The notes under the pieces: generated by a model
Databases searched by the model: none
Told to the model about the DNA's origin: nothing
What the model saw: the letters and a program-made list of their open reading frames with translations, nothing else
Program-made: the position numbers and the translations under genes
NCBI GenBank assembly: GCA_011364925.1
Contig: RDOA01000008.1
Span: forward strand, 36,629 to 100,628
Length of the DNA: 64,000 bases
From: Promethearchaeota archaeon
GTDB lineage: Archaea > Asgardarchaeota > Lokiarchaeia > Sigyniarchaeales > SOKP01
Direction: 5' to 3'
Part shown: one piece after another, positions 7,168 to 64,000 of the stretch
Layout: each line of letters starts with the position of its first letter
Numbering within the stretch: position 1 is the first letter of the stretch

Positions 7168-7674
7168 ATGGAAACAGTAAAAATCATCGTTTCTGGAGAT
7201 GGCGGAGTAGGAAAAACGTCATTTTTGAATCGTTTAGTCAATAATAGTTTTGACGATTTTAGTGAATTAACAAAAGGCGTCGATTTTTACTCAAAAAGGA
7301 TATTTGTTAATGGAACCGAATTTAATTTCATAATGTGGGATTTTGCTGGCCAAGATCGATTTAAAACATTGTTAAACGACTTTGTTGAAGGTTCACTTGC
7401 TGCTTTTATTCTTTTTGACTTATCAAGAATTAATACCATAGAAAATGTATATGAGTGGATAATTAATTTAGAATCATTCGGACAAATTCCTATAATATTA
7501 ATAGGAACAAAGGTGGACTTGATAACCCCATATCAATCCCAAACAATTGATACTTACATCTCAGAAATTAAGAAAGAGTATGAGAATGTAATCTCTTATA
7601 TAAAAATATCATCGAAGACTGGGGAAAATATAAAAAATGCTTTTGAAATTTTAATAGGAAATTTGTTTCGATAA
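7168..7674 (+). CDS. small GTPase, Rab/Ras-like (minimal 168 aa)
   Basis: G1 GDGGVGKTS, G3 WDFAGQDRF, G4 GTKVDL, G5 SSKTG. No C-terminal Cys or prenylation motif. Confidence 0.85.
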   Translation: METVKIIVSGDGGVGKTSFLNRLVNNSFDDFSELTKGVDFYSKRIFVNGTEFNFIMWDFAGQDRFKTLLNDFVEGSLAAFILFDLSRINTIENVYEWIINLESFGQIPIILIGTKVDLITPYQSQTIDTYISEIKKEYENVISYIKISSKTGENIKNAFEILIGNLFR

Positions 7675-8924: not shown

Positions 8925-9869
8925 ATGGCTGTAATACCCCGCAAATCTAACGAGTTTAAACTGGTTATTGCAGGATTGGATAACGCTGGTAAAACGAGCG
9001 CTCTAATAGCGTTAAGACAAAAATATAATTTTTACGAGCGAGTCAAGAATTTAAAACCAACGATAAAAATTGATTATAGCTCCTTTAAATTTCTTAATAA
9101 ATACCGAATTAATCTCTGGGATATGGGAGGACAAAAAAAATTCAGAAAGATCTATATTAATAATCCGATTTATTTTGAAGACACAGATTACATTTATTAT
9201 CTTATAGACATTCAAGATGAAGTCAAATTTGAGGAAGCTATTGAATATCTCCACGAATTACTTAAAATCTTTAGGAATCTGGCTTATCCTAACGAAGTAA
9301 TAGTCTGTTTTAACAAGTACGATCCCCAATTCAGAAATAACGAGGAATTTAGAGATCGAACAGATATGATTAAAAATTTGGTCAAATCACAAAACAAAGA
9401 TATTAAATTTGAATTTTATAACACATCATATTACGACATTTCATCGATTTCGAAAGCATTGTCTCGCTCGTTAAATAGTTTGTTAAATTTAAATGAAATA
9501 GATAACGGTTTAAATAATTTAGTAAGTAACTTTAATTGTAGATATGCAATATTATACACAGATTCAGGAATCATTATTTCTGATCATTATTTAGACACTA
9601 TGGACATAAGAGAGTTTGAAGATAAAATAAGCCATAAAATTAGCGGGGATCTTGAATTCTTTCAGATGTTAAAGGATGAAAATGTTAATATCGACGATAG
9701 AATCACATTTTCCCATGATAAAACTGACTATGTTAAAAAATTTTCAATCCTATCAGAGAATATGGACAATACTCTGTATATTGGGGTAAGTACGACAGTT
9801 AATAGTATTAATGAGGTTAAAATCGAATTAGAAAAACTAAGTAATGTCTTACAAACAAGTTTTGTATAA
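8925..9869 (+). CDS. Arf-motif GTPase with C-terminal roadblock-like domain (Rag/Gtr-like architecture)
   Basis: G1 GLDNAGKTS, G3 WDMGGQKKF, G4 NKYD in the first ~180 aa. The C-terminal ~130 aa (CRYAILYTDSGIIISDHY..ITFSHDKTDYVKKFSIL..TLYIGVSTT) has an alternating beta/alpha roadblock-like pattern. At 314 aa, its length and layout mirror eukaryotic RagA/Gtr1. Confidence 0.7.
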   Translation: MAVIPRKSNEFKLVIAGLDNAGKTSALIALRQKYNFYERVKNLKPTIKIDYSSFKFLNKYRINLWDMGGQKKFRKIYINNPIYFEDTDYIYYLIDIQDEVKFEEAIEYLHELLKIFRNLAYPNEVIVCFNKYDPQFRNNEEFRDRTDMIKNLVKSQNKDIKFEFYNTSYYDISSISKALSRSLNSLLNLNEIDNGLNNLVSNFNCRYAILYTDSGIIISDHYLDTMDIREFEDKISHKISGDLEFFQMLKDENVNIDDRITFSHDKTDYVKKFSILSENMDNTLYIGVSTTVNSINEVKIELEKLSNVLQTSFV

Positions 9870-11092: not shown

Positions 11093-12835
11093 ATGGCCGA
11101 AGAATACGATTTTTTGTTTAAATCGATTGTGGTAGGTGATGGCGGAGTTGGTAAAACAGCACTTACGCTCCGTTTCTCAAAAGGTTTTTTCACTGAAGAT
11201 TACAAAATGACAATCGGTGTTGATTTCCACGTAAAGACAATTTCAATTGATACATCTGAAGGGCCTATCAAGTGTAAGCTCCAACTCTGGGATACTGGGG
11301 GTCAAGAACGATTTAGCTCGATAAGACCAATGTACTATAGAGGATCGTTAGGAACTGTACTCGTTTTTGATCTCACAAATTCAGAAAGTTTTGGACATTT
11401 ACCACAATGGATACAAGAAGTCAGAGCTAACATAAAAGCTGATATTCCGGTGCTTCTTGTCGGAAATAAAAGCGATCTAGTTGACCAGAGAGCCGTCTCG
11501 GCGGAGGATGTAAGTAAATTTACAAGAGACTTTAACCTATATTATATGGAAACTTCGGCTAAAACGGGTGATGGAGTTGGAGATTGTTTTTACATTCTTG
11601 CATGCTTAATGATAGGACAGGGTGTTCCTGAACAATTAATTGCAAACTCAATCGTTTTTGCTCCAGGACAATTTGCTACACCAGCCGTTCAAATTTCTTC
11701 GCAACCAATAGTTACTAAGGAACCTCAAAGCAATTATATCGCACCATCTGTTCCAGGACATATCCAAAACTTGAAAGAGGAGCCTGAAATAGAGTTTGAG
11801 GCACCACCAGTTCCTGAACCGAAGTTATCAAAAGTTCGAGGTCCAACGTCTCCTTTCATTTCCGATTCAGAGATTGAATTTGAGGCTCCACCTGTTCCTG
11901 AACCACCACTAAAAGCGAAACCGCAACCTACTCCCGAAATCTCTCTACCTGAACCAACTGAAATAGAGTTTAAAACTCCTGATGAAATTATGATCAAAGA
12001 AGCTATAAAATCCGAACTTGATACATTAACAAGCGGTGACAATGTCTATAAACCTAAGACTGCACCTTTTACACCCAATGCTCCAGAACCTACAGCACCT
12101 CCTAAAGAATTTCAGAGTTCTTATTCAGAAGAACCAATCGAGAGATCTCCTATCCACACACCATTTCGCGTTATTAAAAGAGAAGAGTCTCCTAAACCTC
12201 AACCAGCTTCAATGACGTTTGAACCTAGCCCTTCACCTCAACCAGAATCAACTGAATCTTTAGAATCAACCTCTGATTCGTTGATCGACTATATGCCTCA
12301 AACAATTTTAACGAAAAAAGAGAAGAAAAAGCAAGCAAAGGAAAAGAAAAAACAAGAAAAAGAGAAAGCAAAAATAGAAAAAGAGAAGAAAATGCTCGAA
12401 GAAAGGGAGAAACAAGAAGAATTGATCAAAGAAATGAAAAAATCTAAAAAATCTAAAAAGGAAAAACCCATCGTAACCCAAACATCAGAACCAACGCAAG
12501 CACCTACTATAAGTCGACCAGAAACTGGTATGAATTCCTTATTCCAAACCCTCACCCAAAAATCTGAAGTCTCCCCACCAGATCAGAGTGTCCCATTTAT
12601 ACCTTTTTCGGGAACAAGCAAAACTAAAGAAGAAGGGACATCTAAATTAAGAATCATCCCAAATGTAGCAGACATTGATGCAAACTCTAACGGTTTCACA
12701 GCTTTTACTTCGTCTCAATCCAATCCAGATGAAGAACCAAAAGCTAAAACTAAAGATCTCTTAATTTGCGAGCAGTGTGGTTCAATCTTATCTGCTGATT
12801 ATGCATATTGTAACAAATGTGGTAATAAGTTATAG
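11093..12835 (+). CDS. Rab-like small GTPase with ~400-aa disordered/repeat extension and C-terminal zinc ribbon
   Basis: G domain: GDGGVGKTAL, YKMTIGVDF, WDTGGQERF, GNKSDL, ETSAKTG. It is followed by P/E-rich repeats (EIEFEAPPVPEP twice, then EIEFKTPDE), a K/E block, and the terminal CEQCGSILSADYAYCNKCGNKL. Confidence 0.85.
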   Translation: MAEEYDFLFKSIVVGDGGVGKTALTLRFSKGFFTEDYKMTIGVDFHVKTISIDTSEGPIKCKLQLWDTGGQERFSSIRPMYYRGSLGTVLVFDLTNSESFGHLPQWIQEVRANIKADIPVLLVGNKSDLVDQRAVSAEDVSKFTRDFNLYYMETSAKTGDGVGDCFYILACLMIGQGVPEQLIANSIVFAPGQFATPAVQISSQPIVTKEPQSNYIAPSVPGHIQNLKEEPEIEFEAPPVPEPKLSKVRGPTSPFISDSEIEFEAPPVPEPPLKAKPQPTPEISLPEPTEIEFKTPDEIMIKEAIKSELDTLTSGDNVYKPKTAPFTPNAPEPTAPPKEFQSSYSEEPIERSPIHTPFRVIKREESPKPQPASMTFEPSPSPQPESTESLESTSDSLIDYMPQTILTKKEKKKQAKEKKKQEKEKAKIEKEKKMLEEREKQEELIKEMKKSKKSKKEKPIVTQTSEPTQAPTISRPETGMNSLFQTLTQKSEVSPPDQSVPFIPFSGTSKTKEEGTSKLRIIPNVADIDANSNGFTAFTSSQSNPDEEPKAKTKDLLICEQCGSILSADYAYCNKCGNKL

Positions 12836-19856: not shown

Positions 19857-21068
19857 TTAAGTATACATTCTTGATTGAACAGACTGATCTTTCATTTTAT
19901 TCATTACTTTATTTACAGCTTCAACAAAATCTTCTTTGACGATTTGCTCTGCATCTTTCCTGATTGCAAACATTCCAGCTTCAGTGCATATGGCTTTGAT
20001 ATCCGCTCCAGTAGCCCCCTCGGTTAATTCAACTAACCTATTAAAGTTAACTTCACCTTCAATATTTAAAGCTCTAGTGTGAATTTTGAATATTGATTTT
20101 CTTGATTCTTCGTCTGGTATGGGAAAATCAATCATTCGATCAAATCTACCTGGTCTTAATAAAGCAGGATCTAAGATATCGATTCGATTTGTTGCTCCAA
20201 TTATTTTTACATCACCTCTTTGCTCAAATCCGTCTAATTCGCTTAACAATTGCATTAAGGTCCTCTGAACTTCCCTATCTCCAGAAGTGGCAATTTTTAA
20301 TCTTTGTGAACCAATTGCGTCTAATTCGTCAATAAATAAAATTGTGGGCGCTTTTTGTTTTGCTAAATTGAAAATTTCTCTTACTAAGCGAGCACCTTCA
20401 CCAATAAATTTCTGAACTAATTCAGAACCAATTATTCTGATAAAAGTCGCTTCAGTTTCGTGAGCAACTGCTTTTGCTACGAGAGTCTTACCTGTACCCG
20501 GGGGTCCATAAAGCAAAACTCCTTTAGGAGGATCGATTCCTACTTTTTTAAATAAATCCGGTTTTAAAAGAGGTAATTCGACAGTTTCTCTTACTTCTTG
20601 TATTTGATCACTTAATCCACCTACGTCTTCGTAAGAGATGTCTGGAATTTCGTCTATTACTTCCATTCCTTTCACAAATGGATCCAATTTAGTCGGTAGA
20701 ATCTCCATAATTGCGAAAGTTCTCTGATTTAAGGCGACTCGCATACCAGGAGTTAAATTCTCATTTTTCACTTTTCTACTGGGGTTAACAACAAAACTAG
20801 GTCCTGTGGAGCTCTTAACAATGACTTTTCCCGTGTCTTCTAACATATCAATTACAGTAGCTGACACTAATGGAGGCTCTCTTAATCTGTCAATCTCATT
20901 TCTTAGACTATTTAATTCCTGCTCTAATCTTAAACGCTCTGCATCTAAAAGTTGCTTCTCCGTTTCAAGATTTCTTAATCTTTTTTCTAAATGCCTCGTA
21001 TAGGTGATTAGATATTCTTCATCTTTCGAAGTTTCTTCCTTTTTTCTCCTGTCCTTAGTCGTTGTCAA
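19857..21068 (-). CDS. pan: proteasome-activating nucleotidase (Rpt-like AAA+ ATPase)
   Basis: N-terminal coiled coil, OB segment, Walker A GPPGTGKT, pore loop KFIGEG, Walker B FIDELD, SRH PGRFDR, C-terminal HbYX (MYT). The only in-frame start upstream of the coiled coil is TTG 21066-21068. Confidence 0.9.
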
Positions 21069-33173: not shown

Positions 33174-34190
33174 TTAAACCTCTTGTGTTTCTATATATTT
33201 TTTTATAATTTGAAGAGCGAGCATTCTAAAAGCGTCATTTATGTTCTCTCCTGTCTTTGCGGATGTTTCAAGATAAGTTAATTTTAATTTCTGCGATAAG
33301 GCTTCTCCTTCTTCCGTTGAAACAACTCGTTCTTCTTTTAAATCTATCTTATTTCCTACTAAAATAAGGACAATGTTAGGAGAAGCCTTCATAATCTCAC
33401 TATACCAATTTATGTCTATGTTTTCAAAACTTTCTCGATTAGTTACATCGTAGACTAAAATTCCCGCTTCAGCATTTGCTAAGTATGACATTCTAACCCG
33501 TTTAAATTGAGCTTGCCCCGCTAAGTCCCATATCACAAACCTAACAGTGCTTTCAAGCTCTTTGAAAGAACATTCCTTTTTCATGATCGATGTTCCAATC
33601 GTAGATTTATAATCTTTTGCAAAAACATTTTCTACATATCGATGTACCATACTCGTTTTTCCCACCGCTCCATCTCCACCGAGAATCAATTTAAAAGCGT
33701 ATTCTTTAGATTTGACTTTAACTTGTTGAACTCTATCTACTTTTCGTTGGATTTGAGAACCTCCAGAATTTATTACTAATTTTGGGATGACGGGACTCAC
33801 AGTTCTTCCGTCAAAGATTCGTGATATTTTTTCAGCTGCTAAATAGGCATAAGGGAAAACCTCATCTACTCCAGATAAAGAATCTAAAACCGTAACAAGA
33901 ACAGCTTCGGGTCCTGACTCGCAGAATATGAACCTATAATCTTCGGTATCAAAAGTACCCGTTCCAAATGAGCCGGAACTAAATTCTTCGGTAATCCTAG
34001 ATAAAACTGGCTCAACCAAAGCACTTACCCCTCCAATAATCTCTTCATTTAATGAATTCTCTGAAGAGCCAATTAAAGAGTCCATAATTAAACCATCCCG
34101 GTTTACGACGAGGACTGCGATTAAATCCTCACCTAAACTCTGTTTATACCATTGGAGTAAGGCTTTTAACTTTTTTGTGTCAATCGACAT
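33174..34190 (-). CDS. roadblock/LC7 domain - Rab/Ras-like GTPase fusion protein
   Basis: N-terminus: LIAVLVVNRDGLIMDSL..GGVSALVEPVL..AVLVTVLD (roadblock-like). C-terminus: GDGAVGKTS, DYKSTIG, WDLAGQAQF, GNKIDL, ETSAKTG. ATG 34190 is preferred over TTG 34199. Confidence 0.85.
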   Translation of the reverse strand: MSIDTKKLKALLQWYKQSLGEDLIAVLVVNRDGLIMDSLIGSSENSLNEEIIGGVSALVEPVLSRITEEFSSGSFGTGTFDTEDYRFIFCESGPEAVLVTVLDSLSGVDEVFPYAYLAAEKISRIFDGRTVSPVIPKLVINSGGSQIQRKVDRVQQVKVKSKEYAFKLILGGDGAVGKTSMVHRYVENVFAKDYKSTIGTSIMKKECSFKELESTVRFVIWDLAGQAQFKRVRMSYLANAEAGILVYDVTNRESFENIDINWYSEIMKASPNIVLILVGNKIDLKEERVVSTEEGEALSQKLKLTYLETSAKTGENINDAFRMLALQIIKKYIETQEV

Positions 34191-34459
34191 CTTTTTCAAG
34201 TTCTTTTTTCTAAGGTCATCATATTCTAATCATACCAATTATATTAATATTTAAAACTTATGAATAAAAATTTTGTTAAATATTTACAACCAAAGCAAGT
34301 GTTATTTTCATCTCTTAATTTCAGTATCTAACTTACTTCACTATTTTCTAGTCAAAAAACCAAAGCTATAAAAAAAAAAATTTTTAACGATTTTATTCTT
34401 TAATGCTATTAAGTTCGAGAAGATAATTAAATTATCATCTGCTTTTCCTTAGATTAGTT

Positions 34460-53191: not shown

Positions 53192-53286
53192 TTGGTAAGT
53201 AAAAAGACTAAATATTATAATTATGAATTTACATATGAATTATATCTTATATCATTTTTAATTAGAATTAAGTTGGATTGATTAAA

Positions 53287-53910
53287 ATGAGCCCAATTAT
53301 TACACATGAAGACGAACTTGAATTAGCCGACATGGAAAAAGAATTAGCAAATCAAATAAAAAAATTAGCCAAAGCCCAGAGCGCTTTAATCGATTCTCAA
53401 AAAAAATACGCCGATAATTTGAGAAAAGCAAATTTAGCTAGAGATATGTTAAATAGGTCTTTTCGAGATGTACTGAAACAAATGCAAACACTGGTAAGAG
53501 AGAGAAAGTCTAATATCAAAGATGAAGAAGTCAATTACTTTCAAGACATTATCCATAAAAATGACGAATACATTACTGTTAATAATAAATATATCGACGC
53601 AATAAAAGATCTTGCAACCAAAAAGGATTACTTGGTGGAAAAAAAATACGAGTTTGCTGACGCTTTAAGCGAAGTGGCTAGTACGCGAGGTGTAGTTATT
53701 AAAAAAGCGTTGTCTGTAGAAAAAAAGAAGAATGATTTAATTGAGGGAGAAAAAATGAAAATTTTAGAATCTGAATTGAACGATCTTCAAAGAGAGTTTG
53801 ATCGCGCACGAGATGTGCTGCTTAAAAAGATTAGTCAATTTCTTCAGGTCAAAGACGAAGTAGATGAACTCTGGGTCAATTTAAAAAAATCAGTTGATAA
53901 ATCTAGCTAA
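53287..53910 (+). CDS. all-helical coiled-coil protein (~208 aa), unknown function
   Basis: Heptad-rich K/E/D sequence throughout. ATG 53287 lies 3 codons inside the TTG-started track ORF. Confidence 0.6.
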   Translation: MSPIITHEDELELADMEKELANQIKKLAKAQSALIDSQKKYADNLRKANLARDMLNRSFRDVLKQMQTLVRERKSNIKDEEVNYFQDIIHKNDEYITVNNKYIDAIKDLATKKDYLVEKKYEFADALSEVASTRGVVIKKALSVEKKKNDLIEGEKMKILESELNDLQREFDRARDVLLKKISQFLQVKDEVDELWVNLKKSVDKSS

Positions 53911-54049: not shown

Positions 54050-54493
54050 ATGGCAGAAGAATTCGCAAATTTCATGCAAGAAACAAAAAAAGCTCCACTT
54101 GAAGAAAAATTAAACGCTTTTGGAGATATCGTTGAAAGAATGATGTCTGTTATTCTGAGGATTCCAGATTTAGTAGATCAGTCTCTAGCAAGTGTTGGAC
54201 AAAGAATTTCAACTTTAGAGTCACGATTAACCACAATTAATAGTGAAGTGTCAGCTCTTAGAACAAGAGGTTCTGGAACAGCTCCAGTTATCGCTGCACC
54301 TTCTGCTCCTACGAGTGCTCCTCCGCCCACATCGGGTCCACCTGGAGGTCCCCCCGGTGGCCCACCTGGAGGCCCACCACCTCCGCCAGGAGGTCCTGGT
54401 GCAGCACGCCCAGCGAGTCCTGTAAGCTTAAGAGGTGCTATAATGGGCGAGCTAAAACAATTATTTTCAAAAAGAGCTCAATCAGGACAATAA
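54050..54493 (+). CDS. coiled-coil / polyproline (GPPGG repeat) / basic C-terminal helix protein
   Basis: GGAG SD (tggagaaagtaaaATG). aa 1-72 are helical. aa 79-124: APVIAAPSAPTSAPPPTSGPPGGPPGGPPGGPPPPPGGPGAARPASP. The C-terminus is SLRGAIMGELKQLFSKRAQ. The Pro tract forms a GC-rich island in AT-rich DNA. Confidence 0.7.
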   Translation: MAEEFANFMQETKKAPLEEKLNAFGDIVERMMSVILRIPDLVDQSLASVGQRISTLESRLTTINSEVSALRTRGSGTAPVIAAPSAPTSAPPPTSGPPGGPPGGPPGGPPPPPGGPGAARPASPVSLRGAIMGELKQLFSKRAQSGQ

Positions 54494-54618: not shown

Positions 54619-56361
54619 TTGGTTAATTCGGTGCCGAACGCATTAAATCGTGAAGTTGAATTCTCTAAAGTTAGAATTGCTCACGATTTTCAGAAGCAAA
54701 TATTAGAAATCCCTTCTTTTATAAGAGTTCTCAATAATTATTATTATAATAAAACTGTTGTCCAATCAAAATTAAAACCTTTAGCATTAAGGAAATTCAA
54801 AGGAGGGAGGAAACCTTTAGAGACTAATAAAAATTGGCTTTATCTTCTTCCTACGCCTTTAAATGTCTTAAGTAGGGATTTACTTCATAAAAAAGATGCT
54901 TTTCAATTCCCAGATAGCATTTTGTTATTTGAAGCTTGGATGAACTTAGGATTGGGTGCGTTATACCCTAGATTAGCGCTACACTATAAATTCCCAGGAA
55001 TATTAAAGAATGAAAAAATAAGGCATGTTTTTCAATTCACATTTTCTACCTCAAGAGGATTTGGATTTCCAATCTATTTTGGACCACAATTTTATGAGTA
55101 TTTTTTGACGATTGGTAAAATTCTTGAACCCTTATTTAAGTGGAGTCATACCATTTGTCATAGAGCTAATCAGGCCATATTTCTGGTCGGTAAGAGATAT
55201 GGGATTAAAAGGCATCATCCTGGGGAATTTGAATCAGTTATTATTTCAGAATATGAAAATAATATGTTTAAAGGGATTGACACTCTCCTTCATGGATATT
55301 TCACTCAAGACCCAAAAAAACTGGGAACATACTCAAATTTAGACGAGATTCTTGATAATACGATGTTTTCTTACTCTATTGGTGATCACGCTATGAGTAT
55401 AGAAAGAAAAGTTAAGAATCAGACAATTACTATTCCTCTGATTACTCACGATTATATTGTTAACAAGTATAGTGTCAATTTTTATGAGTATCTAAAAGGT
55501 TTAATTTCCATCAAGAATCTTCTTATTAAAAAGATTTTGCTCTATAAAACGCAGAGAAAAGCATACATTAACAAATTAAAAAGAATCGATAAAATTAAAT
55601 TTAGATTAAGCCAATCTAAAAAAAAATCCATTCCCAATTTAAGATTGTTTAAACGATTTTCTAAAATTCAAGAATCTTCGCTTCACATTAAGCTTATGGA
55701 ACAATTATTGGAAATATTATGGACTTCACCGTTGTACACTCACGCAATTCACCACAGTATAAATGAAGAAATCACTTCTCAAAAATCTACAGACAACGAA
55801 ACCCTTACCAATTTTGAAAAAGATTCAATGGATTCAATATTTTTATTATATATAAAATTTTTCGAACAAAATAACGATTTTACATTTAAGGAAGTTGAAG
55901 TTTTTGACGAATTAAGGAAGGCTAGGGATCTAATAGGAACTATGTGGTTATCCTTTAAAGAAAAGCATTTTAAATTCGGTATTAAAAAAATAAATGAACT
56001 TTCACTTTTATCCATTACCAGGCAAGATTATAATAAATTTGTAAACGATATGATAAATAACCTCATACCTATATTTTCAATTTACGAAATCTTTAATAGA
56101 TCGCTTTCAGAATCCGTTTATCCAGAATCTATCCCTCAAACCAAACGAATAGGAGCTTATATCGCAAGTTTTTTAACATCAAGGTTCAATCCTTTTGGTG
56201 TAAATTTAATGAACCTCTTCAACAGGCTTGCCTTTTATAATTGGAGCTACTTCATTATAAAAAAGAAGCTTAATCGAACCAACTTTTTCAAATCAATTTT
56301 TAAGCTCCCTATATGGAAGTATATCCCTCCCAACATTGAAAAGAAAATTCTATCTTGTTAA
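54619..56361 (+). CDS. hypothetical protein (580 aa), orphan
   Basis: Long clean ORF with a TTG start and an aromatic-rich N half. No motif recognised. Confidence 0.55.
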   Translation: MVNSVPNALNREVEFSKVRIAHDFQKQILEIPSFIRVLNNYYYNKTVVQSKLKPLALRKFKGGRKPLETNKNWLYLLPTPLNVLSRDLLHKKDAFQFPDSILLFEAWMNLGLGALYPRLALHYKFPGILKNEKIRHVFQFTFSTSRGFGFPIYFGPQFYEYFLTIGKILEPLFKWSHTICHRANQAIFLVGKRYGIKRHHPGEFESVIISEYENNMFKGIDTLLHGYFTQDPKKLGTYSNLDEILDNTMFSYSIGDHAMSIERKVKNQTITIPLITHDYIVNKYSVNFYEYLKGLISIKNLLIKKILLYKTQRKAYINKLKRIDKIKFRLSQSKKKSIPNLRLFKRFSKIQESSLHIKLMEQLLEILWTSPLYTHAIHHSINEEITSQKSTDNETLTNFEKDSMDSIFLLYIKFFEQNNDFTFKEVEVFDELRKARDLIGTMWLSFKEKHFKFGIKKINELSLLSITRQDYNKFVNDMINNLIPIFSIYEIFNRSLSESVYPESIPQTKRIGAYIASFLTSRFNPFGVNLMNLFNRLAFYNWSYFIIKKKLNRTNFFKSIFKLPIWKYIPPNIEKKILSC

Positions 56362-56391: not shown

Positions 56392-56973
56392 CTAAAATTC
56401 CAGAAATCCAGGATCATCAAAAATGTCGTCAATTTTCTTTTCTTTCTTCATATCGCTATCATCGTGTTCTGTAAACAATGACTCGTCATCGGTTTTTATC
56501 CCCTTCTCCAATTCTAATGTATCTAATTGAAGTAATGCGTTCTTTTCTTTTCTTTTATATTCTTCAGCTTTTGTTTTCCATCTATTTACTTCCTCGAGAT
56601 CGACATTGTTCTCGTCCTCTAAGGCTTCAGCAGCTTTAGCTTTACAAAGATCAGTTAAAATAGAGTAACATAAAACTAATTCCCCCCACTCGTTCTTCTG
56701 TTTTAACTTTGCTATTCTTTTCTCTAGTCGCTGAAGTTCTTGATCAGCATAAAAGATGTCTATAAAATCTCCAAATGCATCAACAGGTTCCGAAATAGAA
56801 TTAACAAGCACTTCCTTAGTTAGCCCACAATGGCCACACTTCACCGTAGCTATTGCACTTTTCCTAATATTTTCCACTTTTACGGATTTCTCTCCGCAGT
56901 TAGGGCATGTGAATATCTTCGGAACTTTTTTCACTCTTTTATAGGTTTGCTGCTTTCTTTTTCGTCTTCCCAT
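56392..56973 (-). CDS. elf1: transcription elongation factor Elf1 homolog with long C-terminal coiled-coil/acidic extension
   Basis: MGRRKRKQQTYKRVKKVPKIFTCPNCGEKSVKV..VKCGHCG..SEPVDAFGDFIDIF aligns with eukaryotic Elf1 (basic N-tail, CxxC..CxxC, SEPVDVYSDWID). It is followed by ~115 extra residues. Confidence 0.8.
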   Translation of the reverse strand: MGRRKRKQQTYKRVKKVPKIFTCPNCGEKSVKVENIRKSAIATVKCGHCGLTKEVLVNSISEPVDAFGDFIDIFYADQELQRLEKRIAKLKQKNEWGELVLCYSILTDLCKAKAAEALEDENNVDLEEVNRWKTKAEEYKRKEKNALLQLDTLELEKGIKTDDESLFTEHDDSDMKKEKKIDDIFDDPGFLEF

Positions 56974-60422: not shown

Positions 60423-61730
60423 ATGAGTTACAAAAAGAAATCCACGAGAATTGAGAAACCTGGTAGAAAAAGAGAAAAGTGGACGGATATTCTTCCTCGA
60501 TATCTTACATTTTTGACACACATGCGCCCGATTTTAAGAGAAACCAGGAGAATTATAATTGATTTAGATGCAGATCTATTATTAGACCCTGAAATCCTAG
60601 ATAAAATTAGAGAAGAAGAAGAAAAAAGAAACATCAGAAAAGTAAGAGCTTTATCCGAATTTTCTGCAATGTATAGATCAAATATCTACGAAATCATAAA
60701 AGATTTTTTAGTAAAATATAGGGATCGAATTCCAGTAATTGATATTAAAGATTACATTATAGAATTTTTGTTCGAATCCATAGATGCGTTAAATGTATTA
60801 CGACACATAACTAACCCTGATGAACAGAATTTAGAAAAAACTTACTTATATGCTCTAGTTAAATTTATCGAAGAAAAGCTGCTTCCTCGAGGTAGAAATA
60901 TAAACGTAATTTACAAAAAACTATTAGATGCTTCCCAAAACGTATATGAATGTCAAAGGCATATACTTCAACCACATACATACTATCGCGAAAAACTAGA
61001 GGATTCAGATTCATTTGAAATTCCAGGAATTTCCCCAAAAGTATATCAAATTATTAATAATATCACATCACTCCTTAATCTAGATCCTAATTTTGGAAAC
61101 TTTCCTGAAAGAGAGAACCATGAAATCCCAATGATTTTAAAGGCTGATATTTTTAACCCATATATAGATTCAATAGCAAATGCAGAAGAAAACGCAGTTG
61201 GTCAAATTTCTGAACGCATTGGACTTCGTATTATTGATGAGATTTTTCTCGCACCAAGAGAAAACTTAGTAGAAATCATGTTAGAAAATAATTTCGTACG
61301 TACCACTACACAATCTGATGGAACTATAAGATTATTACCCCAATTGAGCAATGAAACATTAATATTATACTATTTATCATTTGCTTCCCAAAGAAGAGGT
61401 TTCTTGACTAAAGAATTAATAAATTGGATATCAATGAACTTCGCTTTTTTAATGTATATGGGGATTTTAAAATGGAAATTATCTGATCAAAACATTTTCT
61501 ATCCAATTTTTAAAGATTTACAAACCAATGAGAAAATTCTTCCTTACTTAATGAAACTTATCTGTTTTCCTAACTACTTAGGCATAGATAAAATGAAGAT
61601 AAGGGATTCACCTCAGTATAGAAAAGAAATTTTCAACTTTATTGGTTCTCAAATAGATAATCTTAAAGATTTTATCAATGAAATAGCAATGTTTTGTGAA
61701 AAGTTTGATAAAGAAAGGAAAAATAACTAA
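60423..61730 (+). CDS. orphan protein P4 (435 aa, helical)
   Basis: ATG 20 nt after the P3 stop. Basic N-terminus, helical-repeat-like. No motif recognised. Confidence 0.6.
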   Translation: MSYKKKSTRIEKPGRKREKWTDILPRYLTFLTHMRPILRETRRIIIDLDADLLLDPEILDKIREEEEKRNIRKVRALSEFSAMYRSNIYEIIKDFLVKYRDRIPVIDIKDYIIEFLFESIDALNVLRHITNPDEQNLEKTYLYALVKFIEEKLLPRGRNINVIYKKLLDASQNVYECQRHILQPHTYYREKLEDSDSFEIPGISPKVYQIINNITSLLNLDPNFGNFPERENHEIPMILKADIFNPYIDSIANAEENAVGQISERIGLRIIDEIFLAPRENLVEIMLENNFVRTTTQSDGTIRLLPQLSNETLILYYLSFASQRRGFLTKELINWISMNFAFLMYMGILKWKLSDQNIFYPIFKDLQTNEKILPYLMKLICFPNYLGIDKMKIRDSPQYRKEIFNFIGSQIDNLKDFINEIAMFCEKFDKERKNN

Positions 61731-62856
61731 TTTACTATTAAATGAGTTGAGAAAAATTAATAGTTCGAAAGAAACAGCGAGAGAAAATATAACATTTACT
61801 GATGATGTTATAAAAAATAGGATAGGAAAATATGGTGCAGTCTATTTTCCTTCCGACATTCAAGAGTCTATTGAGGATATCTTAGGCAATGAAACAAAGA
61901 AAGAAATTTTACATGATTTTTTTAAAGCCTTGAAGAAATACCATGAATTTATTAAACAATTAAAAGGTTCGAAACTTAATCCTAGTTTAACTGTTCTCTT
62001 ATATGGGCCTCCTGGGACCGGAAAAACTTCCCTTACAAGAGGATTTGCAAAGGAATACAATATACCGATTTGTGTTGTAGAAACTGATAGACTTGTATCT
62101 CCCCTGCTTGGAGATACTATAAAACAAATTAGAAATGTTGTAGAATTAGCAGCTGAAATTGCAAAAGAGAGAGGAGCTTTTATTTTATTTTTTGATGAGA
62201 TTGATGCTATTGGATCTGAACGATCTAATATCCACGAAGTCGGAGAGATAAAACGAGCTGTAATCTCTTTTTTACAAGTTGTTGATCGAGTTAATTATGA
62301 AGGAGTGCCATTAGCTATTTTTGGAGCCACTAATCATCAAAATCAGTTAGATTCTGCCATTTGGAGGCGATTCACCTTCCATTTTAGCTTTGAATTTCCT
62401 GATTATCAATTAAGAAATCAAATCATTAAATCATTTCTTGATAAAGTTGGAAAAGCAAAAATTGGGGTTGATGATTCAATATATACTAGTTTGAGAGATG
62501 AATTTAAAAGAATTCAAGAGTTGATTAACGATTTAGAACGCAAATTAGGTCATACTGTCTCTGAATTCGAAGGGGATATCTTCTGGGACGAATTTCATAA
62601 AAAATATAAGGAGAAGGGTTTAATTGAACTATCTAAAGGGTATTCGGGTTCAGATATAGAGAGAGGTACGAGAGTAGCATTATTAAAAGCGATTAATACC
62701 GAACGCCTAACCTATGACCTTTTTTATAACTCATTAAAATTGGTTGGAGGTACGGCAATTCATGTAGAAAGACAAGATATTTTAAGTAATACGAAGCAAA
62801 AGATTTTTAGTACGAGTAGAGCAAAAGATGACCGAAAAAAACCACCAGAAATATAA
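61696..62856 (+). CDS. classical-clade AAA+ ATPase, Vps4/spastin/Msp1-like (P5)
   Basis: Walker [13 protein letters not shown], Walker B ILFFDEIDAIG, sensor-1/SRH FGATNHQNQLDSAIWRRF (RRF rather than PGRFD), lid GYSGSDIERG. Pore loop 1 is SPLLGD, with no aromatic residue. There is no ATG before Walker A, so the start is GTG 61696, TTG 61705 or TTG 61747. Confidence 0.85.
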   Translation: MKSLIKKGKITNLLLNELRKINSSKETARENITFTDDVIKNRIGKYGAVYFPSDIQESIEDILGNETKKEILHDFFKALKKYHEFIKQLKGSKLNPSLTVLLYGPPGTGKTSLTRGFAKEYNIPICVVETDRLVSPLLGDTIKQIRNVVELAAEIAKERGAFILFFDEIDAIGSERSNIHEVGEIKRAVISFLQVVDRVNYEGVPLAIFGATNHQNQLDSAIWRRFTFHFSFEFPDYQLRNQIIKSFLDKVGKAKIGVDDSIYTSLRDEFKRIQELINDLERKLGHTVSEFEGDIFWDEFHKKYKEKGLIELSKGYSGSDIERGTRVALLKAINTERLTYDLFYNSLKLVGGTAIHVERQDILSNTKQKIFSTSRAKDDRKKPPEI

Positions 62857-63961: not shown

Positions 63962-64000
63962 ATGAGTCAAAAAAAATCCGAACTCGACATTGGATCAAAA
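63962..64000 (+). CDS. 5' end of a further co-directional gene (P7, truncated by window edge)
   Basis: ATG 22 nt after the P6 stop, reading MSQKKSELDIGSK... to the window end. Only 13 codons are visible. Confidence 0.3.
   Translation, partial: MSQKKSELDIGSK

Follow-up and report, generated by a model that had tools for sequence, protein, structure and literature searches.

An AAA+ ATPase of the IetA-like branch in a conserved eight-gene array of Asgard archaea

The window analysed here, a stretch of 64,000 nucleotides (nt) from contig RDOA01000008.1 of a Promethearchaeota archaeon, contains near its 3' end a gene for an AAA+ ATPase, the fifth in a tight same-strand array of eight genes, A-B-C-D-AAA-F-G-H. 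An earlier annotation made from the letters of the window, the sequence-only reading, had singled out this gene for motifs like those of Vps4, spastin, katanin, and Msp1, a pore loop without an aromatic residue, an insertion in the lid, and the lack of an ATG start. Our comparisons identify the protein as a classical AAA+ ATPase of the IetA-like branch, and its cluster possibly constitutes a new system. Residue numbers are counted from TTG 61747 unless marked as open reading frame (ORF) residues, which are counted from GTG 61696. Two alignments are referred to throughout: A1, 28 close Loki-type sequences with a mean column identity of 73%, and A2, 76 homologues including wider relatives, which was used to build an AlphaFold2 (AF2) model.

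The ORF runs from 61696 to 62856 on the forward strand, as first delimited, and encodes 386 amino acids (aa) counted from GTG 61696, with a TAA stop at 62854-62856 and the first in-frame stop on its 5' side, a TAG, at 61684-61686. Ahead of Walker A lie four start-type codons in frame, GTG 61696, TTG 61705, TTG 61747, and TTG 61930. The coding sequence most likely starts at TTG 61747 and not at 61696 (369 aa; 61747..62856, +), because database protein P0001 and most orthologues start there, behind a GAG or GAGG. P0001 is 99% identical, 369 aa long, and called from this same TTG, and most homologues are 363-372 aa long and begin at the aligned position; an N-terminal extension similar to the one from GTG 61696 is called in only a few of them (P0010, P0085). 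The codon at the aligned site is TTG in loci L001 and L002, ATG in L003, L005, and L006, ATT in L004 (L004 10001), and GTG in L007, and GAG or GAGG stays just 5' of it in L001-L004 and L007. This combination of a varying start codon and a kept GAG(G) motif suggests coupled or Shine-Dalgarno-led initiation. The start lies 16 nt past the gene D stop; the start codon in L007 shares nucleotides with the stop of the preceding gene.

Orthologues vary in their start codon, and a start other than ATG is unremarkable here: it is a feature that the family tolerates and does not point to decay. A codon scan confirmed that no ATG precedes Walker A, and in fact the entire ORF holds no Met codon. The same absence is the ground on which the ORF might be called a pseudogene or a mis-called frame. 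However, more than 120 homologue clusters keep the full-length frame, the start site is constant among orthologues, with ATG, GTG, ATT, or TTG behind GAG(G), and the catalytic motifs are invariant; conservation has already refuted the pseudogene explanation, whose probability we put at practically nil. The ORF is, on this conservation, a genuine gene of Asgard archaea. A frameshift fusion of gene D and the ATPase was considered and ruled out, as orthologues have separate, coupled stop and start codons. The Loki-type ATPase family is strikingly Met-poor in general: 28 homologues average 1.6 internal Met over ~370 aa. Twenty long ORFs of the window have a background of 1.8% Met, at which the probability of finding none in the window ATPase is about 1e-3.

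The features of the ATPase gene are the following.

61747..62856 (+): coding sequence of the AAA+ ATPase, most likely 369 aa from TTG (Pfam AAA; orthologue starts)
61696..61746 (+): N-terminal extension of 17 codons from GTG 61696, less likely; overlaps the 3' end of the upstream gene
61798..61881 (+): conserved N-terminal element TDDVIKNRIGKYGAVYFPSDIQESIEDI, residues 18-45, in place of an MIT or other N-domain (A1 and model)
62005..62028 (+): Walker A, GPPGTGKT, residues 87-94 (A2)
62092..62118 (+): pore loop 1, LVSPLLGDT, residues 116-124, with Leu120 at the canonical aromatic site
62182..62205 (+): Walker B, ILFFDEID, residues 146-153, with F148, D150, E151, and D153 invariant
62212..62256 (+): pore-loop-2 region and family motif GSERSNIHEVGEIKR, residues 156-170 (A2 and model)
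62323..62382 (+): sensor 1 and second region of homology (SRH) GATNHQNQLDSAIWRRFTFH, residues 193-212, with adjacent Arg fingers R207/R208 (A2)
62473..62616 (+): insertion in the lid (residues 243-290) that expands its second helix into a helical hairpin, ahead of GYSGSD (AF2 model)
62638..62658 (+): lid motif GYSGSDI, residues 298-304 (A1)
62743..62811 (+): extra C-terminal helix with the LVGGTAIHVERQ motif, residues 333-355 (helix 336-355 in the model)
62842..62853 (+): C-terminal tail PPEI (P-[PR]-E-[IL]-COOH), closing a disordered linker (A1 and model)

Pfam recognizes only PF00004 (AAA), at ORF residues 100-233 (E=3.4e-26), and its scan of the ATPase returned no MIT, Vps4_C (PF09336), AAA_lid_3, or other N-domain. 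All features of the classical AAA clade are present, namely Walker A, Walker B, sensor-1 N196, and the Arg fingers R207/R208, invariant in the 76 sequences of A2, bearing out the earlier statement that these positions are intact. By these motifs the protein is a single-domain classical AAA+ ATPase with an intact catalytic apparatus, and it is probably active in protein remodelling. In Walker A, G87, P88, P89, G90, G92, and K93 are invariant across A2 while T91 and T94 are kept in at least 90%; the FFDEID string of Walker B occupies residues 148-153. In the pore-loop-2 region S157, E158, E167, K169, and R170 are invariant in A2, its GE[IL]KR is common to IetA, and residues 159-162 have low predicted local distance difference test (pLDDT) values, as in a flexible loop. 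The SRH string quoted in the sequence-only reading, GATNHQNQLDSAIWRRF, corresponds to residues 193-209, and A194, T195, N196, H197, L201, D202, A204, W206, R207, R208, and F209 are invariant in A2. Aligned by BLASTP with PAN of the same window, the SRH reads AIWR--RFTF, a two-residue deletion relative to the RPGRF of PAN. The site of the inter-subunit DGF motif reads D-R-[VI]-N-Y in the ATPase family.

Pore loop 1 lacks an aromatic residue, as had been claimed. In BLASTP the segment LVSPLLGDT (VSPLLGD being residues 117-123) pairs with LVQKFIGEG of the window PAN, so that Leu stands where PAN has Phe, and genuine IetA also carries Leu-Leu; the alignment is therefore not shifted, and the possibility raised at the outset, that a different register would bring an aromatic residue to this position, does not hold. 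Fully or almost invariant in A1 are the pore loop DRLVSPLLGDTIK, the pore-loop-2 region, the SRH, GYSGSDIERG, VGGTAxHVxRQ, and the C-terminal P[PR]E[IL].

The AF2 model has a pLDDT of 83.4 and a predicted TM-score of 0.79, compared with a pLDDT of only 50 when the 28 close homologues were used alone. It comprises a helix and strand (19-33), a canonical linker helix (49-75), a standard AAA alpha/beta core, the lid hairpin, an extra C-terminal helix, and a disordered tail. With the start most likely at 61747, the N-terminal region ahead of the linker helix is only about 44 residues long. The earlier reading was right that this region shows no MIT domain, by the Pfam scan, but in place of ~100 aa there are ~44 residues and a standard linker helix. 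Within the conserved N-terminal element G27, G30, A31, Y33, I38, E40, and D44 are invariant in A1, and a short helix (19-26) and a strand (30-33) are modelled with pLDDT >90; it matches no Pfam domain.

The ~45 extra residues reported ahead of the lid motif are real: the insertion amounts to ~47 residues relative to PAN, IetA, and ~316-aa Asgard relatives, all of which are without it, and is modelled confidently as a helical hairpin (helices 243-267 and 278-286; mean pLDDT of 10-residue blocks 81-95). Its DEFKRIQ...KYKEK stretch spans residues 251-290, and like all the other motif strings quoted before, those of PAN included, it is present in the translations. Within the Loki-type subgroup E252, K266, E273, and W280 of the insertion are invariant (A1). 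In the lid motif G298, S300, G301, S302, D303, and I304 are invariant and Y299 is kept in at least 90% (F in 2/28), while relatives read G[YF][ST]G[AS]D. V333, G334, G335, T336, A337, H339, V340, R342, and Q343 of the C-terminal helix motif are invariant in A1. Residues 348-366 have pLDDT <50; the linker before the tail is variable, and the P[PR]E[IL] tail itself is kept in 28/28 sequences. Membrane association of the ATPase was considered and set aside, as no hydrophobic segment was found.

The best-scoring named family for this protein is IetA (IteA), the ATPase and antitoxin of IetAS, a system for plasmid stability and anti-phage defence. Among NCBIfam models, IteA (NF042959) gave 173.4 bits, compared with 82-84 for PAN (TIGR01242), 81 for CDC48, 79 for CdvC, and 71 for FtsH, although the IteA score lies far under the equivalog cutoff of 510. 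As controls on the same model, a PGAP-annotated IteA from an Acidovorax plasmid scored 570 bits and the window PAN (19857..21068, -; 592 bits on TIGR01242, lid TGADI) 133 bits. The IetA models of PADLOC gave 192 bits, phrog_3757 of PHROGs likewise 192 bits, and BLASTP against the Acidovorax plasmid IteA 35% identity over 225 aa of the core. IteA, bacterial IetA-like proteins, a euryarchaeal family, and the Asgard family have the motifs ATNH-x3-LDxA[IV]WRRF, GE[IL]KR, and S-x-[LMY]-L-G-x-T in common. At the site of the pore loop, IetA reads SSLLGQT, the Asgard Loki-type proteins SPLLGDT, and the euryarchaeal and some Asgard relatives SQYLG. As RRF, ATNH, and the non-aromatic pore loop are present in bona fide IetA, they are family traits and not peculiarities of this gene, which makes the finding less surprising than first proposed, the odd motifs being common to a bacterial protein. 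Two other assignments were discarded, a PAN paralogue (82-84 bits vs a cutoff of 500, with a different N-domain and a different tail, PPEI) and a TRIP13/Pch2-like protein (68 bits in PADLOC vs 192 for IetA).

Placement was examined in a neighbour-joining (NJ) tree of 44 sequences and 202 columns with Kimura distances and 300 bootstraps. The references were yeast Vps4, human spastin, human katanin p60, and yeast Msp1, identical to their PDB entries apart from engineered Walker B mutations, together with the window PAN and with haloarchaeal Cdc48 (both domains) and FtsH from annotated plasmids; the euryarchaeal relatives had come up incidentally in a GPPGTGKT pattern scan of genome contigs. The Asgard, IetA-like, and euryarchaeal proteins grouped in 100% of bootstraps, the Asgard sequences together in 72%, and the Asgard and IetA-like proteins, as sisters, in 72%. 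The four meiotic-clade references grouped in 72% with the window ATPase outside, and the superfamily was sister to the meiotic clade in 39% and to PAN in 32%. Core identity of the window ATPase is 34-40% to IetA-like proteins, 27-31% to meiotic members, 31% to PAN, and 29-32% to Cdc48. Scores, motifs, and tree place the ATPase in an IetA-like AAA subfamily with bacterial IetA and the euryarchaeal family. Membership in an already characterised archaeal AAA family was not found; the Asgard family is itself uncharacterised, and the euryarchaeal one appears to be so as well.

The sequence-only reading had looked to the meiotic clade, and the matching phylogeny, run as the NJ tree above, answers against it. 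As a member or direct offshoot of that clade, the ATPase would disassemble an ESCRT-III-like or tubulin-like polymer or extract proteins. The motif match behind this idea is real: a single AAA domain, an SRH with adjacent RR and no Pro-Gly spacer, and a GYSGSDI lid the same as in Vps4. The extra C-terminal helix that the model has past the lid may also count for it, and the sister position in 39% of bootstraps points the same way. In phmmer searches of the PDB with the whole protein, two-domain Cdc48-type proteins ranked first (about 58 bits per domain) and matches within one AAA domain of NVL, Rix7, and Afg2-B reached 88-98 bits, but the best protein with a single AAA domain was katanin MEI-1 (74 bits). 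The C-terminal half with SRH and lid found mostly spastin, Vps4, FIGL1, and Msp1/ATAD1 (E = 4e-4 to 1), its top match being a fission-yeast ATAD2 homologue. Foldseek with the AF2 model returned Rpt subunits, Msp1, p97, FtsH, Vps4, PAN, FIGL1, and katanin with indistinguishable scores (query TM-scores of 0.5-0.59, 20-25% identity), the top matches all being classical AAA unfoldases. Affinity to the clade itself was not supported. The ATPase sits outside the meiotic references and within the 100% group, its identity to meiotic members is no higher than to PAN or Cdc48, and CdvC scores 79 bits vs 173 for IteA. Adjacent RR fingers on their own are not diagnostic of the clade, because IetA and the euryarchaeal relatives have them too. 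The ATPase has no Pfam match to Vps4_C, AAA_lid_3, or MIT, no transmembrane segment, no microtubule-binding N-domain, and S-P-L-L-G-D where the clade has a Lys-aromatic pore loop (K-[WY]). Its lid insertion precedes the GYSGSD helix, whereas the beta-domain of Vps4 is located after it. No Snf7/PspA or tubulin family was matched by the cluster genes. In the census of Makarova et al., Vps4 is defined by an MIT domain or ESCRT neighbours (PMC11188069), and the ATPase has neither. The likeness to the meiotic clade is, on this evidence, one of motifs only, and we consider membership in it very unlikely.

Kinship with IetA likewise has its bounds. IetA is encoded directly ahead of an overlapping or abutting partner gene, and an ATPase-then-partner order recurs here. 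IetA is a reported antitoxin of its neighbour IetS, for which active IetA appears required (PMC13069673). We found IetS next to IteA in the Acidovorax plasmid and also next to an Acidobacteria relative; domain searches of the cluster proteins, by contrast, revealed no S8 peptidase of the IetS type. The N- and C-terminal regions of the two ATPases are unrelated, the lid hairpin, VGGTxxH helix, and PPEI tail belong to the window protein, and its gene is chromosomal, syntenic, and highly conserved, not plasmid- or island-borne.

The euryarchaeal family (among others in Haloferax profundi, Halogranum rubrum, Methanosarcina, and Methanoculleus) has LDSAAWRRF, ATNH, and a partner gene that follows, but differs in a ~200-aa N-terminal domain, a Tyr pore loop (TSQYLGET), a canonical AAA_lid_3, and a core identity of ~30%. 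In the three loci scanned (L011, L012, L019: Methanosarcina, Methanomicrobiaceae, Halogranum), all three euryarchaeal ATPase genes are followed by an abutting or overlapping gene of the metallo-beta-lactamase fold. Seen in L010-L012, L015, L019, and L020, this euryarchaeal protein occurs in halobacteria and methanogens, is ~425 aa long in copies from metagenome-assembled genomes (MAGs), and has an N-terminal domain reading VVEFLLTAHLYT...DLPPRYRRVFW. With PAN and Cdc48 the window ATPase has the fold and catalytic apparatus in common (37% identity over 156 aa to the window PAN), but it is without their coiled-coil/OB or double-psi N-domain and HbYX tail, and carries RR for RPGR and D-R-V-N-Y for the inter-subunit DGF. 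In Cdc48/p97 D1, too, the aromatic pore position is taken by Leu or Met.

The homologues retrieved for the window ATPase make up more than 120 clusters (69-99% identity), and all source names given are Asgard MAGs (Loki-, Thor-, Odin-, Hod-, Hermod-, Heimdall-, and Promethearchaeota). An exhaustive search of representatives gave 129 at E<1e-30, among them ~316-aa versions of ~40% identity from Heimdallarchaeota LC_3, Hodarchaeales, and Helarchaeota, which are without the lid insertion and in some cases have Tyr at the pore position. The 369-aa type is set apart by a full-length identity of at least 60%, the lid hairpin, a P[PR]E[IL] end, and the A-B-C-D-AAA-F-G-H array beside Elf1. With all of these, the window ATPase is by our comparison the Loki-type representative of an Asgard-restricted orthologous group.

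The remaining genes of the array, with identities to the L003/L004 orthologues, are these.

57151/57163-58263 (+): gene A, 65-66% identity
58266-59222 (+): gene B, double zinc ribbon, 71-74% identity
59248/59257-60402 (+): gene C, 384 aa, 80-83% identity
60423..61730 (+): gene D, 435 aa, no known domain, 80-81% identity
62905..63939 (+): gene F, 344 aa, K/E-rich coiled coil, 39-44% identity (35-44% to orthologues)
from 63926 or 63962 (+), past the window end at 64000: gene G, degenerate SMC/Rad50-like, 545 aa in L001 (L001 7170-8807)
past the window end, same strand: gene H, 171 aa (locus L001)

By the same comparison the ATPase stands at 72-73% identity, and a nearby radical SAM enzyme shares 64% with its counterpart in L004. 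Genes C and D are thus better conserved than either, yet have no detectable domain or PDB relative. Searches of Pfam, NCBIfam, PADLOC, and PHROGs yielded no family for A, C, D, F, and H and only weak zinc-ribbon matches for B; profile searches of C and D against PDB sequences found no relative, and neither protein shows a protease or nuclease domain or conserved residues of a catalytic type. Gene D has 598 homologues above the search threshold. Among the 120 listed none has a Pfam domain, all are unnamed or 'hypothetical', and the named sources are Asgard MAGs, save one subsurface-metagenome record. Gene B is an internal duplication of two CxxC...CxxC zinc ribbons, each joined to a Trp-rich ~110-aa module (LSWWKTYQHAGMFKIYDK, LRFYWWMRDLSNILKFGQ). 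At the Helarchaeota locus L006 there is no gene of matching size where B would sit.

The array adjoins a divergently transcribed Elf1 homologue, and this linkage recurs in L003, L004, and L007 and in the more distant L092. The Elf1 homologue is a zinc-ribbon protein (56392-56973, -; Pfam E=4e-19) with an acidic coiled-coil C-terminal extension of ~115 residues. Gene order and flanks as in the window and L001 are kept in L003, L004, and L007. Upstream, the syntenic loci have Pelota, radical SAM, and three more unknown genes; downstream there are Lsm and a cobW GTPase in L001, L003, and L007 and a SAM synthetase in L001 and L003, the L004 locus ending ahead of this flank. The window as a whole is core Asgard chromosome of 32% GC, with RNA polymerase subunit B, PolD DP1 and DP2, Cdc6/Orc1, NrdD, a Pelota-like gene, and PAN.

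The wider relatives point to what the ATPase may act on. In Heimdallarchaeota LC_3 (L005), Helarchaeota (L006), and L093 the ATPase gene is directly followed by an SMC/Rad50-like coiled-coil ABC ATPase of 714-1075 aa, and in L091 such a gene follows with one gene between. These proteins match AAA_23 and SMC_N, score up to 116 bits on SMC_prok_A, and have intact Walker A and B. Winged-helix proteins lie past the SMC-like gene in L005, L006, and L091, the sign in L005 being only a weak ScpB match. Ahead of the ATPase, sequence comparison identifies C-like and D-like genes in L005 and L006. A D-like gene is found ahead of it in L003-L007, and for L091 and L092 one is assigned only from its size and location. 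In L091 three similarly sized genes occupy the positions ahead of the ATPase, and L093 lacks such genes. Gene G aligns with the C-terminal head of the SMC-like family in hhalign over the signature and Walker B region (Prob 75%, E 2.5e-5). This coiled-coil protein is degenerate, reading LTTPEK for an LSGGEK-type signature and ILFSN for the hhhhDE of Walker B, and has no Walker A. The idea that F and G are the halves of a split SMC-like protein was dropped, because the 344-aa F shows no similarity to the SMC-like family. Across the superfamily the order is an ATPase and then a variable partner, be it an S8 protease (IetS), a metallo-beta-lactamase, or an SMC-like protein, and the Heimdall/Hel-type ATPases have differing neighbours, among them a 947-aa NYN protein and a MoxR-VWA pair.

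Considering these relatives, we propose that the ATPase is an ATP-driven remodeller or regulator of a co-encoded partner complex, a reading for which we see the case for and against as evenly balanced. The ATPase would assemble into a ring and, much as IetA keeps IetS in check, use ATP hydrolysis to remodel, assemble or disassemble, or reset its partner. Candidates for the partner are the degenerate SMC-like, coiled-coil, and winged-helix set or the highly conserved C and D proteins. A segment of the partner would be held in the central pore by an aliphatic Leu-Leu staircase, with a lower grip as in Cdc48/p97 D1, and docking would fall to the lid hairpin and PPEI tail on the periphery. The complex may organise the chromosome or the cytoskeleton, or it may be a domesticated defence system. 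Several points weigh against the proposal. The SMC-like neighbour G is without Walker A and B here, and gene F lies between it and the ATPase, which leaves the relatives as the source of the proposed partner; the hhalign support for G as SMC-like is moderate. C and D, more conserved than the ATPase, are equally possible targets or may be unrelated. The missing aromatic pore residue could mean no threading at all. Neighbour joining on 202 columns is a simple distance method, many of the MAG taxon labels are the submitters' own and are taken as given, and interaction, ring formation, and ATPase activity are predictions.

Two other roles deserve weighing against the remodeller. One is an anti-virus or toxin-antitoxin-type system, in which an IetA-type regulator (antitoxin) would control a novel effector and an SMC-like protein would act as the sensor, similar to Lamassu or Wadjet. 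The nearest named relative being IetA, the match to phrog_3757, the variable effector-like neighbours across the superfamily, and the varied contexts of the Heimdall/Hel-type versions all speak for such a system, and the SMC-like relatives weakly match LmuB, JetC, mad3, PtuA, and GajA. However, the synteny of the array is fixed, in a core chromosomal region where it is flanked by housekeeping genes, namely Pelota, radical SAM, and Elf1 at one end and Lsm, cobW GTPase, and SAM synthetase at the other. B, C, D, and the ATPase (71-83%) are better conserved than the radical SAM neighbour, no protease or nuclease domain is apparent in C or D, the SMC-like component is ATPase-dead by sequence, and A-D, F, G, and H match nothing in PADLOC or PHROGs. 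We regard a defence role of this kind as unlikely.

The other is a non-threading role as nucleotide switch or assembly factor: the oligomer would translocate no polypeptide and would serve the cluster proteins as an ATP-dependent clamp or scaffold. It would fit the Leu, or Met in some homologues, that replaces the aromatic residue throughout the Loki-type group, the D-R-[VI]-N-Y in place of the inter-subunit-signalling motif, and a lid hairpin and PPEI tail that suggest docking at the periphery. Against it stand the invariance of pore loop 1, of the pore-loop-2 region, and of both Arg fingers, which would be expected of a central channel in use; the Tyr that relatives retain at the pore position; and Cdc48 D1, where aliphatic pore loops do contact substrate. 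This too seems quite unlikely to us.

As for the history of the array, we tentatively suggest, as a possibility more doubtful than not, that it encodes an undescribed Asgard-specific eight-gene machine with the AAA+ protein as motor or regulator, derived from a domesticated mobile 'AAA + SMC-like' defence module and now serving a core function such as chromosome or cytoskeleton organisation. Its parts would be four domain-less proteins, the IetA-type AAA+, a coiled-coil protein, an ATPase-dead SMC/Rad50-like protein, and a tandem-winged-helix-like protein. A module of AAA and an active-looking SMC-like protein is still present in Heimdallarchaeota LC_3, Helarchaeota, and other Asgard MAGs. In the papers searched on IetA/IetAS or katanin/spastin-like ATPases in Asgard archaea, on SMC-like clusters, and on asCOG neighbourhoods, we found no description of the family or cluster.

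Placement in the IetA-like superfamily corrects a tempting mis-assignment to Vps4 or katanin. It also presents IetA as one branch of a wider AAA+ family, each paired with a different downstream partner (protease, metallo-beta-lactamase, SMC-like). The defence mechanism of IetAS is reported as not known (PMC13069673). Modular partners would offer a testable logic for the bacterial defence system and the archaeal clusters alike, and with pore loops that vary naturally between Tyr, Leu, and Met, the family lends itself to the question of how strong a grip an AAA+ pore requires. The locus itself is a well-conserved, unstudied operon, restricted to Asgard archaea and without recognisable domains apart from an AAA+ motor and a degenerate SMC-like protein, with members better conserved than a housekeeping neighbour.

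Further genes upstream of the array are of some interest in their own right. A 147-aa protein (54050-54493, +), syntenic in L003, L004, and L007, starts in a helical segment, continues in a long Pro/Gly tract GPPGGPPGGPPGGPPPPPGGPG, and ends in a short amphipathic helix; its polyproline tract could be a ligand of profilin or SH3-type domains in an actin-bearing archaeon. Two more genes lie upstream of Elf1, one for a highly charged, all-helical protein of 210 aa (53278-53910, +) and one for a 580-aa protein (54619-56361, +). Both are syntenic in L003, L004, and L007 at 49-72% identity, and Pfam, NCBIfam, PADLOC, and PHROGs gave nothing for either. Elsewhere in the window are four genes for small GTPases of the Ras/Arf/Rag(Gtr1) kind (7168-7674, 8925-9869, and 11093-12835, +; 33174-34199, -), two of which are fused to long extra regions (580 and 341 aa). 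Many small GTPase genes are typical of Asgard genomes.

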